Source: a virus (Duplodnaviria > Heunggongvirae > Uroviricota > Caudoviricetes). From it: a DNA stretch of 62,599 nucleotides. Below, in pieces: positions 29,116 through 31,337 of this stretch (within the stretch, counting starts at the first letter, position 1; every line of letters begins with the position of its first letter). The stretch covers positions 1 to 62,599 of the IMG/VR virus record IMGVR_UViG_3300045988_162118. The stretch is one strand, 5' to 3'. The position numbers and the translations under genes were made by a program. The notes beneath the pieces were generated by a model, which was not told the origin of the DNA, did not search any database, and saw nothing but the letters and a program-made list of their open reading frames with translations.

Positions 29116-31130
29116 AAGAGCTGTGCTATGGATCTGTTTGCAGTGGAATTGAAGCCGCGAGTATTGCCTGGGAACCGTTGGGTATGCGTCCGGTGTGGTT
29201 TGCTGAAATCGAGTCTTTTCCATCTGCCGTTCTTGCGCACCGCTGGCCCCATGTCGCCAACCTTGGCGACATGACAAAACTTGCCAAAAAAGTCCTGGCT
29301 GGGGAAATCGAATCCCCTGATGTGCTCGTCGGGGGAACACCTTGTCAGGCATTCAGTATCGCGGGATTACGTGGTGGGCTTGATGATGAGCGTGGCGCGC
29401 TAACTTTAAAGTATGTGGAGCTTGCAAATGCAATTGACGACAAACGGGCTGAGTCATTTCTCAAACCAGCCGTTATCGTCTGGGAAAATGTCCCAGGAGT
29501 CTTGTCATCGGCAGATAACGCCTTCGGATGTTTCCTTGCTGGATTGGCTGGAGAAGATGTGCCATTTGAACCAGGTGATCGACCTGAATCAGGAAAAAGC
29601 AACGCGTTCTGGCGGTGGGATGGCAAAACCGGTTGCCATGTTCCAAAGTGGCCGCAGTGTGGTTGTATTTATGGACCGCAGCGAAAGGTGGCCTGGAGAA
29701 TCCTTGATGCCCAATACTTCGGAGTGGCACAACGACGCCGACGCGTGTTTGTTGTCGCAAGTGCTCGAACAGACCTCGATCCCGCAACGGTACTTTTTGA
29801 GTTCGAAGGCGTGCGCCGGAATATTGCGCCGAGCAGAGGCGAGGGGAAGGAAACTACCAGATATACTTCAGACATCGCTATCAGATCTTGCGATGATACA
29901 AACATAGTTGCCATGGCACATGGGCAAGGAGGGGCTGAGATAAAAACCGATAATTCGGCACCAACTTTGACATGTAACCATGAAGCACCAATTGTATTGC
30001 TCGGCGACGGTAGAATGCGCCGTCTTACCCCTGTCGAATGTGAAAGGCTGCAAGGTTTTCCTGATGGACATACATTGATCCCTACGGAAAAGCGTAAAAA
30101 AGTTTCTTCAGATGAACTGGCATACCTTCGCAAAAACTCTCCTGATTTGAACGAAGAAGAGGCTGCAATGCTTGCAGCTGACGGACCGCGTTACAAAGCG
30201 ATCGGCAATAGTATGGCGATACCAGTAATGCGCTGGATTGGCGAGCGGATAACCAAGGCTGCATGTCGGCAGAATGAAGGGCGTGAAACAAAAGAGCGAA
30301 AAGTTAAACCAGCGGCAGAATTCGAACGGTCCATATTCAAATGGGCTGGTGGAAAATTTGGTGTTCTGGAACAAATCTTTCGCTATTTGCCAGAAGGGAA
30401 GCGCCTGATTGAACCTTTCGTCGGTGGTGGAGCTGTCTTCATGAATGCCGGATACCAGGAAAATCTGCTAAATGATGTGAATGCTGACCTGATTAACTTT
30501 TACAAGACTCTGCAACGCGAGGCGCATTCACTTATCACTCTGGCACATCGGTTCTTCCAGGACTACAACACCCAGGAGGGATTCCTGGCAGTACGGAATG
30601 CGTTTAACAAACAAGTCTATGATGATTTACATCGCGCAGCGGCGTTTTTGTTCCTGAACCGACATTGTTTTAACGGATTGACGCGTTACAACCAGGCCGG
30701 TGAGTTCAATGTCGGTTATGGGAAGTATAAAACTCCGTATTTCCCATTACAGGAGATGGAAGCCTTCCTCGGTGCGGAAGGGCGGTCTGAGTTTGTATGC
30801 GGTGATTTTGCAGCGGTGATTGAAGCTGCCGGAGAAGGAGATGTCATCTTTTGCGATCCGCCGTATGAACCGCTTCCAAATACAGAGGGATTCACGAACT
30901 ATTCCGGTCATGACTTTAAGTTTGAAGAGCAAAAACGCCTGGTGTCTCTGTTGACGGATGCTCATCGTCGAGGTGCAAAGGTTCTCATTACTAACAGTGG
31001 CGCGCCAAACATCAGAGAGCTTTATCATGACAGTGGCTTCAGAGTGGAACATCTTTTTGCCAGACGTTCTGTGTCTTGTAAGGGGGACACTCGAGGTGTA
31101 GCTCATGACGTTTTGGGTATATTGCTCTAA
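29112..31130 (+). CDS. dmt: bifunctional DNA methyltransferase: N-terminal C5-cytosine MTase fused to C-terminal Dam-like N6-adenine MTase
   Basis: 672 aa; C5 motifs [11 protein letters not shown] (PCQ), [23 protein letters not shown]; C-terminal FKWAGGK...EPFVGGGAV and DPPY (FCDPPYEP). Confidence 0.85.
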
Positions 31131-31137
31131 TAAATTT
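31121..31137 (+). promoter_or_regulatory. C1 operator overlapping -35 of a promoter reading into the tRNA/ban operon
   Basis: Exact ATTGCTCTAATAAATTT over the dmt stop codon; TAATAT -10-like at 31145-31150, 17 bp from TTGCTC. Confidence 0.55.
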
Positions 31138-31149
31138 ATTAGTGTAATA

Positions 31150-31337
31150 TCGCCTCAATGAATCGTGATTTATAGAGCGATTTAGCTGTTAGCCGCGACA
31201 GGCGCGGCGGTAAGCATGGCTGGGCCTAGTCCTCCCAGACAAACCACCGAGTTGCCAGGTTGACCATGCGCCTAAGTGGCAACGCCGAAGTGCGTTACGA
31301 GCTTCCAGTTTGCCCATCTTCGGGTGGGCGTTTTTTT
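31150..31337 (+). ncRNA. candidate structured non-coding transcript
   Basis: No ORF with RBS; GCCGCGACAGGCGCGGC hairpin, TTGCCA...TGGCAA stem, ends at intrinsic terminator. Confidence 0.25.
31312..31337 (+). terminator. intrinsic terminator
   Basis: GCCCATCTTCGGGTGGGC hairpin followed by TTTTTTT. Confidence 0.55.

Follow-up and report, generated by a model that had tools for sequence, protein, structure and literature searches.

What does a P1-like phage make from the nucleotides that separate a C1 repressor operator from the operon it controls? This question is raised by positions 31121-31337 of a 62,599-nt viral DNA (IMG/VR record IMGVR_UViG_3300045988_162118, analyzed over its whole length and here called the window). 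From the sequence alone, an earlier note had proposed that this segment yields either a repressor-controlled small RNA (sRNA) or a terminated leader that would need antitermination to reach a downstream tRNA/ban operon. The window is from a P1-like phage, with 98.5-99.1% identity to P1 at the ban control region (98.5% to AF234172), and the segment is the start of P1's already known C1-repressed ban operon. The same locus is present in the P1 GenBank record (AF234172 / NC_005856), which has the operators, the promoter, the overlap with the dmt stop codon, a 'dicF-like region', and the downstream tRNA-Asn gene in common with the window. The two differ in that the terminator tail is T7 in the window and T6 in P1, and in that the window carries an extra tRNA-Tyr gene between those for tRNA-Asn and tRNA-Thr. 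The earlier note overlooked this annotation, including the 'dicF-like region'.

Both the operator and its promoter are well known from P1, and that part of the locus therefore holds nothing new. What is new is that the P1 'dicF-like region' represents a copy of a domain that precedes DicF-type sRNAs in thousands of E. coli prophages, including Qin of K-12, and that has no Rfam match. This finding raises the questions of whether the domain acts in processing, antitermination, or sensing, and whether P1 uses it to launch an sRNA with new targets when repression is lifted. It also bears on the old problem of how transcription reaches ban through a strong terminator. Our literature search returned no paper on the P1 dicF-like RNA, on ban-leader transcripts, or on the sequence motif of the domain, and it yielded no data on transcripts, their ends, Hfq binding, or targets for the P1 locus.

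A C1-controlled promoter followed by non-coding sequence

The elements that govern entry into the segment are the following.

31121-31137, + strand: C1 operator Oban-a (Op72a), ATTGCTCTAATAAATTT, with 0 mismatches to the 17-bp consensus
31132-31148, - strand: C1 operator Oban-b (Op72b), with 2 mismatches
31122-31150, + strand: sigma-70 promoter P1ban, annotated in AF234172
31122-31127, + strand: -35 element of P1ban, TTGCTC
31145-31150, + strand: -10 element of P1ban, TAATAT
~31105-31136, + strand: predicted promoter P2ban, annotated in AF234172

The AF234172 features Obana/Obanb (equivalent to Op72ab), P1ban, and P2ban map one to one onto the window when placed with an offset of 27999. The perfect operator sequence occurs only once in the window, and sites with up to three mismatches number 15 (0.29 expected by chance). 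Oban-a and Oban-b have opposite orientations and share 6 bp, so that the operator is bivalent. The stop codon of the dmt ORF (29112-31130; TAA at 31128-31130) falls within Oban-a, and the earlier description of an exact C1 operator lying over both the dmt stop and the promoter -35 element was accurate.

A generic promoter consensus scan missed P1ban because just 7 of the 12 consensus positions match, and thus the promoter call depends on the P1 annotation rather than on consensus strength. Control of P1ban by C1 is supported by the operator sequences, with repression in vivo by C1 (and Bof) indicated by GenBank annotation and older literature. The P7 record likewise places the tRNA genes and ban under an Op72ab-type operator. 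Transcription would begin near position 31157. It is established P1 genetics that ban is expressed from P1ban. The ORF corresponding to P1 ban starts at 33845 and thus lies 2712 nt (~2.7 kb) beyond the operator (31121), and therefore a strong terminator, described below, must be passed.

The evidence supports the view that the ~180 nt beyond the promoter are non-coding, as had been claimed. On the + strand, 31157-31337 contains only TTG/GTG ORFs of 24-33 amino acids, and neither these nor the other local ORFs match Pfam or PHROGs. A 93-amino-acid ORF on the minus strand (31189-31470) is annotated as hypothetical in some P1-like records, and SJ46, JL22, and several lambdoid phages carry a 'hypothetical protein' annotation beneath the match. 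However, the annotated minus-strand ORFs have unrelated lengths and positions across phages, and the 93-amino-acid ORF begins with TTG, lacks any Pfam or PHROG match, and would overrun the tmRNA-like RNA gene described below. Substitutions in the region follow a helix-compensatory rather than a codon-like pattern. That a small protein is encoded here is thus scarcely credible.

A conserved RNA domain of about 90 nucleotides

The transcript is predicted to open with a hairpin and then to form the domain, whose parts are as follows.

31159-31184, + strand: 5' transcript hairpin, restricted to the P1 family, with no difference between P1 and P7
31194-31283, + strand: conserved structured RNA domain, common to lambdoid DicF loci
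31194-31197/31203-31206, + strand: helix H0
31208-31211/31246-31249, + strand: helix H1
31214-31219/31264-31269, + strand: loop-loop pseudoknot
31220-31224/31234-31238, + strand: H2 hairpin with a CU-rich loop
31251-31257/31277-31283, + strand: helix H3
31258-31260/31270-31272, + strand: helix H3b

The domain starts 36 nt after the transcription start in P1. Its hallmark sequence blocks, GGCGCGGCGGYAAGYAUGG and CAGGUUGACCAURCGC, are both present in the window with their pairs kept, and its loops of 12-14 nt are invariant in sequence. When the domain was modeled by covariance, window positions 31186-31303 scored 95.7 bits (E = 1.8e-29), this sequence being itself in the model's seed. The structure in the leader is thus not a collection of stems peculiar to P1 but a domain with wide conservation, a point that the earlier note had missed.

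The earlier note had pointed to several strong stems. Folding energy provides weak backing for this claim: the leader has an MFE of -64.8 kcal/mol (z = -1.69), and 13 of 200 shuffled sequences fold equally well. The real evidence for RNA structure is covariation, which the note had proposed to examine among homologs. In an alignment of 68 distinct sequences, which was fitted to the nested helices though not to the pseudoknot, pairing holds in 97.2% of cells, and slid registers pair only 28-49%. Compensatory changes are found in seven pairs (2.1 in shuffles, with 0 of 500 shuffles equaling the observed value), with a modest sequence diversity of few lineages behind this count. The G-U pairs (e.g., 49 G-U and 19 G-C at one pair) fit the + strand alone. 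In the suggested comparison with Rfam, scans of 4 kb, 621 nt, and 321 nt around the site assigned no family to 31157-31337; the hits were confined to terminators that resemble nuoG, RyhB, isrB, Ysr49, and the like at chance level.

The earlier note had also made its reading depend on conservation among related phages, and the domain is indeed kept in P1-like plasmids and phages at 87-100% identity. This maintenance weighs against the idea that the stretch is a functionless mosaic remnant, left between a real promoter and real genes when a P1 ancestor recombined with a lambdoid prophage. The P1 family is certainly mosaic here, given that D6 differs upstream of a shared terminator and that the H2 and pseudoknot elements of P7 look Qin-like. 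However, the differences between P1 and P7 are confined to the domain, those in H1 and the pseudoknot are compensatory, and H1, the pseudoknot, and H2 all stay paired. Moreover, the spacing between the domain and the RNA gene that follows it is fixed: of the 45 loci with both elements, 43 show 136-138 nt. We therefore regard a mere remnant as very improbable.

Relationship to DicF loci

Window positions 31193-31287 share 76-80% identity with the stretch between ydfC and dicF in the Qin prophage. The domain is widespread: 4268 of 5426 E. coli genomes (~79% of complete genomes) carry it, with up to eight copies per genome and one copy per locus. It is also found in lambdoid phages of Escherichia, Salmonella, and Actinobacillus and in one Serratia genome. 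A scan of a genome collection, whose pattern was too loose so that most of its matches are due to chance, gave real matches in E. albertii, E. ruysiae, E. coli, Shigella, Serratia symbiotica, and a few P1-like contigs.

Six lambdoid loci were inspected, and in each of them the domain belongs to the early-left operon, where it lies 340-920 nt past the end of the repressor gene and ahead of kil, dicB, or exo. In lambdoid phages it occupies the 3' UTR of ydfC-like genes, whereas in P1 it lies close to the start site. In Qin and mEp460, DicF begins 25 nt past the end of the P1-similar stretch. The Rfam model for DicF (RF00039; gathering score 48 bits) scores 76.7 bits on these two loci, which served as positive controls, and found no match in a 321-nt search of the window even at E<=10. 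We therefore reject the proposal that the P1 'dicF-like region' is DicF. The GenBank label, which spans window positions 31245-31347, lumps the conserved domain with a tail that is not DicF.

What P1 shares with the dicF locus is architecture. In both cases, a repressor-controlled early operon carries a structured domain of ~90 nt, a short variable module, and then an intrinsic terminator, such that the primary terminated RNAs are of similar size and the downstream genes need read-through. The P1 tail lies directly after a domain of the ydfC-dicF type and has a terminal intrinsic terminator, as DicF does. This arrangement is fixed, in that each of the 13 downstream sequence classes has an intrinsic terminator 45-105 nt past the domain. 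The likeness does not extend to the P1 tail (31284-31337), which is not homologous to DicF, to the terminator sequence, or to the downstream genes, which are RNA genes and a helicase gene in P1 but dicB or kil in the dicF locus (ydfC - domain - DicF - terminator - dicB). The domain is more strongly conserved than the downstream sRNA parts, DicF included, and this suggests that it has a function of its own beyond being plain precursor sequence.

DicF is produced by early Rho-independent termination and RNase E cutting on its 5' side, with read-through giving dicB, and RNase III also acts on the full-length dicF operon RNA (PMC9438474, PMC5069750). These two nucleases invite the suggestion that the domain is only a processing or stability element, perhaps an RNase III/RNase E entry site or barrier set between an upstream mRNA and the RNA genes beyond it, and that P1 makes no trans-acting sRNA. 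The 3' UTR location in lambdoid phages agrees with such a role, as does the series of RNA genes that need excision from the P1 operon. However, P1 has no upstream mRNA to protect, invariant loops and a conserved loop-loop pseudoknot exceed what a nuclease barrier needs, and a terminator follows the domain in every class. This explanation seems unlikely to us.

The 3' module, the terminator, and two predicted outputs

The 3' end of the segment comprises two elements.

31284-31310, + strand: P1-specific 3' module, a small hairpin (31288-31306) followed by CAGUUU
31311-31337, + strand: intrinsic terminator, UGCCCAUC-UUCG-GGGUGGGCG, then U7

The terminator stem (31311-31330) has 8 bp, five of them G-C pairs, and is capped by a UUCG loop; T7 follows at 31331-31337. 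The canonical terminator described earlier is thus present, and its hairpin appears in both the MFE and centroid folds, although terminators are not enriched overall in a scan of the window (5 sites versus 3.7 expected). It is conserved in P1, P7, and D6, with the D6 copy located behind a different upstream RNA. The 3' module occupies the place of the DicF 5' seed in Qin and has no similarity to DicF. It is invariant in the P1 family and therefore offers no evidence from covariation or seed conservation. In a crude RNAduplex test against ftsZ positions -60 to +40, 0.87 and 0.54 of shuffles paired as well as the P1 tail, and the value for true DicF was 0.093.

Features related to Hfq binding are visible, namely the 3' hairpin with U7 and a short U-rich linker. 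As in Hfq-dependent sRNAs derived from 3' UTRs or leaders, of the DicF and SroC type, there is a Rho-independent terminator with a long U tail, a short single-stranded stretch before it, and an origin inside an operon. By analogy, the P1 leader RNA may be an Hfq-type sRNA candidate.

The choice posed at the outset is probably a false one, in that the locus would be an sRNA gene and the terminated leader of the tRNA/ban operon at once. The C1-controlled promoter, the non-coding sequence, the terminator, and the dicF-locus architecture speak for both. Our best explanation, for which we see about an even chance, is that the locus produces a C1-repressed DicF-type precursor of ~181 nt whose effector tail is not that of DicF, while some transcription reads on into the operon of RNA genes and ban. 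In a lysogen, C1 would occupy the bivalent operator (31121-31148) and shut off P1ban. On derepression, RNA polymerase would produce the 5' hairpin, the pseudoknotted domain, and the 27-nt P1-specific module, and most polymerases would then halt at the hairpin-U7 terminator and release the ~181-nt RNA with the ends predicted above. Trimming between domain and tail, perhaps by RNase E as in the DicF route, could then yield an sRNA of ~50 nt of the Hfq type that acts in trans. Its targets would differ from those of DicF because the seed is unrelated. A fraction of polymerases would pass the terminator and transcribe the tmRNA-like RNA, the tRNA genes, tciABC, and ban.

Passing the terminator

The requirement for read-through suggests another role for the domain, namely that of a cis-acting device, either a factor-independent antiterminator that modifies RNA polymerase, resembling the put elements of phage HK022, or a riboswitch-like aptamer that senses a ligand or a condition. 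Such a device would gate the terminator found 45-105 nt past the domain, and the short RNA would be made as a by-product or as an output of second rank. HK022 put RNA promotes terminator read-through in cis via the zinc-binding domain of the RNA polymerase beta' subunit (PMC9378689). Like the P1-type domain, it is a nascent RNA of two stem-loops (~70-75 nt) located close behind an early phage promoter and before terminators, in phages that have no N gene at the usual place. The domain has a comparable make-up, with two adjacent stem-loop units (H1-H2 and H3) in about 75 nt. Its position near the P1 start site is suitable for such a role, as is its early-left location in lambdoid phages, where none of the intervening ORFs scanned against PHROGs in four loci is N-like, and where cdtI and Stx2c_PV98-693 have no ORF at all between the repressor gene and the domain. 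The succession of a pseudoknotted domain with invariant loops, a variable linker, a terminator, and genes in all 13 classes also agrees with this proposal, as does the need to express ban.

However, the P1-type domain differs from put in that it lacks sequence similarity and exists as a single copy per locus; the ~1 kb examined on the PR side contains no second one. With filters off, the domain model did not match HK022 putL (minus strand, ~740-812 of the sequence searched), and its best hit in the HK022 PL/put region, of 5.9 bits, is located away from putL. Homology to putL/putR is therefore rejected, and put is a possible functional analog that serves as a lead only. For riboswitch-like switching, a by-eye search detected GGCGG in both H1 and the terminator stem of the lambdoid versions, but this alternative pairing was dropped because it is absent from P1, and the P1 and lambdoid versions have no conserved alternative pairing of domain with terminator in common. 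A leaky terminator would also suffice for ban expression.

For these reasons we consider a read-through device possible but doubtful. The broader proposal, that the domain founds a new class of put-like or riboswitch-like read-through elements that set the ratio of terminated sRNA to downstream early gene expression, strikes us as more unlikely still. If it is correct, the terminated sRNA would be DicF in Qin and another RNA in P1, where the domain would gate an operon of RNA genes, the tmRNA-like RNA being the first.

A neighboring tmRNA-like RNA

The gene that follows the terminator in the same operon has the following parts.

31341-31609, + strand: tmRNA-like RNA gene, its tmRNA-like part reaching to ~31520
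31342-31380, + strand: 5' arm, antisense to host ssrA (tmRNA)
31398-31427, + strand: 10-codon SsrA-like tag frame, ANDDLMMVAA, with a TAA stop codon at 31428-31430
To ~31520, + strand: pseudoknotted hairpins
31515-31605, + strand: long hairpin, then a U-rich run

This RNA, which the earlier note had missed, begins 4 nt past the U-tract of the terminator. A search for a tRNA-like domain gave no T-arm at a fixed distance and no tmRNA call by ARAGORN, and Rfam gave no match outside the tag region. The RNA is present in 293 phage records. If this tmRNA-like, anti-ssrA RNA is real, it would represent a phage tool against the host ribosome-rescue system, and it may hold wider interest than the ban leader.

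Control and termination at the start of the ban operon

The window segment 31000-31900 is 98-99% identical to P1 and its relatives, and the GenBank record AF234172 (P1 mod749::IS5 c1.100) carries annotation at the matching positions. These annotations include the end of dmt, a predicted promoter P2ban, and the features tRNA-Asn, tRNA-Thr, plp, upl, tciABC, tRNA-Ile, and ban, in addition to the following elements (AF234172 entries at an offset of 27999).

31121-31137: Oban-a, one half of the bivalent C1 operator Obanab (formerly Op72ab); AF234172
31122-31127: -35 element of the sigma-70 promoter P1ban; AF234172
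31128-31130: stop codon of the dmt ORF; located here
31132-31148, minus strand: Oban-b, the other half of Obanab; AF234172
31145-31150: -10 element of P1ban; AF234172
31245-31347: "dicF-like region", given as 102-bp; AF234172
31311-31337: intrinsic terminator, stem-loop 31311-31330 followed by U7; located here

The exact operator 17-mer occurs once in the window, which contains 15 sites with three or fewer mismatches versus 0.29 expected. It overlaps both the dmt stop codon and the -35 element, just as the earlier note had claimed, and the promoter-like element described there is the annotated P1ban. Because this promoter was not picked up by a generic consensus scan, its assignment rests on the P1 annotation. 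The terminator, correctly called canonical, is the top-scoring such site in the scanned 4-kb region. Pfam and PHROG searches matched none of the ORFs that lie within or cross the segment, which upholds the view that no credible ORF is present, and it is extremely improbable that the segment is protein coding. Given that the operator, dmt stop, terminator, and ORF checks agree, the original observation is confirmed.

A conserved RNA domain upstream of the terminator

Operator and promoter, like the "dicF-like" annotation, are already on record (GenBank, 2004). A 1994 study reportedly found dicF-related sequences to be widespread in prophages. An Rfam scan of 31157-31337, which the earlier note had proposed, matched no family and gave no DicF match even at E<=10; applied as a positive control to the Qin prophage and phage mEp460, the DicF model gives 76.7 bits in both. 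In a sensitive DNA search, positions 31193-31287 exhibit 76-80% identity to a stretch that 4268 of 5426 complete E. coli genomes carry, at up to eight copies each. In a K-12-type strain (L002, the Qin region), this stretch lies at 2501-2597 between ydfC and dicB, directly upstream of DicF (2622-2673) and without overlap. It is also carried by lambdoid phages (mEp460, Evi, cdtI, 2H10, Stx2c phages, Salmonella F1055, and Actinobacillus pPE4) and by one Serratia symbiotica genome. At all lambdoid loci inspected, the stretch sits within the early-left operon, with the repressor gene on one side and kil/dicB/exo-type genes, whose strand it shares, on the other.

Because the shared stretch lies upstream of DicF and the tail has no DicF match, the P1 "dicF-like region" is, judged by sequence comparison, a copy of the conserved dicF flank followed by a DicF-unrelated tail (31284-31337). 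Neither Rfam nor the searched literature recognizes the shared part as a separate pseudoknotted domain distinct from DicF, mentions that the P1 tail falls outside the DicF family, or mentions domain-to-terminator as a fixed architecture. The predicted elements of the domain are as follows.

31194-31197 / 31203-31206: H0, small hairpin
31208-31211 / 31246-31249: H1, CGGU/ACCG, encloses H2
31214-31219 / 31264-31269: pseudoknot, six-base loop-loop pairing of GYAUGG with CCAURC that joins the H1 internal loop to the H3 loop
31220-31224 / 31234-31238: H2, variable-length hairpin with a CU-rich loop
31251-31257 / 31277-31283: H3, second stem-loop
31258-31260 / 31270-31272: H3b, part of the second stem-loop

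The domain was aligned as 25 representatives with MAFFT (alignment A3) and as 68 distinct sequences fitted to covariance model R1, built here (alignment A4). In A4, 97.2% of cells are paired, versus 28-49% with slid partners, and seven pairs show compensatory changes (shuffle mean 2.1; none of 500 shuffles reaches seven). The pseudoknot, which was left out of the model used for this alignment, is 99.3% paired, and one of its positions shows U-A, C-G, and U-G. P1 and P7 have identical promoters, 5′ hairpins, tails, and terminators, and their differences are confined to the domain, where those in H1 and the pseudoknot are compensatory and H2 is still a hairpin. Numerous G-U pairs are compatible with the plus strand alone. 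As for the strong stems claimed earlier, the domain helices are supported by covariation; in terms of energy, the 184-nt RNA folds only slightly better than shuffles do (z = -1.69). Because only a few lineages contribute the diversity, the case for a structured RNA in this domain is good but not overwhelming. That the segment is a functionless mosaic remnant seems quite improbable.

The H2 loop (31225-31233; A4 columns 42-88) varies in length and nearly always contains a CUCC/UCCU motif resembling an anti-Shine-Dalgarno sequence. This motif could pair with GAGGA just 3′ of the stem in Qin-type copies; P1 has no GAGGA partner.

Possible functions of the segment

Among the loci collected here, an intrinsic terminator lies 45-105 nt after the domain in 13 of 13 downstream sequence classes. 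Lambdoid classes end in GGCGG...CCGCCCUUUUU, with seeds that are DicF or unlike DicF, and the pPE4 and cdtI downstream sequences score below the Rfam DicF threshold. The P1 class ends in GCCCAUC-UUCG-GGGUGGGCG-U7. In Qin, DicF is produced by early Rho-independent termination and an RNase E cut at its 5′ end, and dicB is expressed from read-through RNA (PMC9438474, PMC5069750). The P1 locus follows the same plan, with a promoter of its own 36 nt ahead of the domain, and its predicted primary RNA is ~181 nt.

We give roughly an even chance to a locus with two outputs, namely a DicF-type precursor with a P1-specific Hfq-type small-RNA tail, and partial read-through. When C1 leaves the operator, P1ban would be transcribed and most transcripts would stop at 31337, yielding a DicF-type precursor whose tail is a putative P1-specific Hfq-type small RNA. 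The remaining transcripts would read through into the RNA-gene/ban operon, and the P7 record annotation likewise places tRNA genes and ban under the operator. However, this two-output reading does not account for the 5′ domain, including its invariant 12-14-nt loops, being conserved more strongly than any small-RNA tail.

Because of that conservation, an alternative stays alive wherein the domain would influence the terminator in cis, as a put-like RNA polymerase modifier or a sensor, although we regard this as rather unlikely. Its aptamer-linker-terminator layout and its place in the early-left operon are consistent with such a role, as is the fact that ban can be reached only past a strong terminator. 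Furthermore, no N-like gene lies between the repressor gene and the domain at six lambdoid loci (four with ORFs scanned, two without ORFs). Against this, the covariance model shows no similarity to HK022 put, each locus has one copy, and no alternative pairing is conserved. A pure processing or stability role for the domain is unlikely.

The P1 relative D6 retains the terminator and everything downstream but differs in the upstream RNA, and therefore the parts behave as modules. The D6 locus (L251 1160-1530), which has the terminator and a tmRNA-like RNA in common with P1, carries another structured RNA upstream. Part of that RNA, GGGGUAAGGCCGGGGAUAUCCCCAGGGGGAGGCACCCCCGCUGCAACG, resembles one half of the domain (H1/H2) in degenerate form together with the lambdoid linker CCCCGCUGCAAC.

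A neighboring tmRNA-like RNA

A conserved, tmRNA-like noncoding element (31341 to ~31520, perhaps to 31609) begins 4 nt after the U-tract, in the same operon and outside the segment discussed so far. Matching DNA, unannotated there, occurs in 293 phage records that span highly diverse groups (Vi1-like, N4-like, and T1-like phages, Cronobacter ESP2949-1, Aeromonas pIS4-A, and Erwinia phiEa2809). Of 5426 E. coli genomes, 660 contain the element, mainly in P1-like plasmids, and it also lies downstream of Q in one lambdoid prophage. The loci considered are L253-L257, L003 2500-2700, and many IMG/VR loci among L258-L369.

All 131 copies examined contain a tag frame that starts GCA AAC GA and runs for exactly 10 codons before its stop, and together they encode 17 different SsrA-like tags. 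The P1 tag is ANDDLMMVAA (31398-31427, with TAA at 31428-31430), and other phages encode ANDDVVLMAA, ANEEMYLAVA, and others; the E. coli SsrA tag is ANDENYALAA. Rfam tmRNA models match the tag region only, at sub-threshold scores (22-33 bits). The stop codon is enclosed by a helix, and two downstream hairpins, whose loops pair with their 3′ flanks (pseudoknot-type), covary, with 11 of 24 pairs compensatory. No tRNA-like domain was found when one was looked for in this RNA. In T1-like phages, the RNA has its own promoter (TTGACA-17-TAGATT).

A conserved 5′ arm (31342-31380 in P1) is antisense to nt ~68-104 of E. coli ssrA, a region that takes in the 3′ strand of PK1 as well as the resume codon and codons 1-5. 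Its blocks GUUUUCGU, GCGAC, UUUGCGG, and UUUUUA complement ACGAAAAC, GUCGC, CCGCAAA, and UAAAAA in ssrA. For all 16 phage representatives, the predicted duplex falls between -31 and -39 kcal/mol (z = -4.5 to -7.1), which none of 500 shuffles equals, whereas predicted pairing of the arm with the RNA's own tag region is only -13 to -21 kcal/mol. Complementary DNA oligonucleotides block tmRNA action in vitro (PMC3384345). Perhaps the RNA masks the host tmRNA template, or it may substitute its own template in a form of hijacking. In a 2014 census, mycobacteriophages and Bacillus phage G are the only ones listed with tmRNA genes (PMC4131195), and our limited literature search turned up no account of an anti-tmRNA from a phage.

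Other features of the operon and related loci

Positions 31515-31609 hold a long and almost perfect hairpin (-44.8 kcal/mol) and then CGUUUUCUUUU, a combination that resembles a second terminator or an RNase III substrate ending the tmRNA-like RNA. The motif CACAACAGGTAAGGG occurs at 31520-31534, after this RNA, and at 32052-32066, after tRNA-Thr. Unrelated phages also conserve it behind their tmRNA-like RNA, at the same relative position in T1-like loci (e.g., L257 and L261), and it may be a processing signal that flanks RNA genes in several phages.

In the lambdoid phage cdtI, which has a copy of the domain as well, two Rfam matches adjoin each other near the antirepressor gene (L006 29-217, minus strand): one to C4 antisense RNA, at 68.4 bits, and one to isrK, at 60 bits. 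A sub-threshold match to the Salmonella sRNA STnc100 (38 bits versus a gathering score of 47, E = 6.4e-6) lies at 32629-32748, by position the P1 upl/tciA intergenic region (L001, the P1 record, 4497-4687), with tciA not mapped in the window itself. Finally, an 87-nt tRNA-Tyr(GTA) with an Rfam tRNA score of just 41.9 bits lies between tRNA-Asn and tRNA-Thr (31884-31970); it is missing in reference P1 and P7 and is present in vB_EcoM-Ro157c2YLVW.
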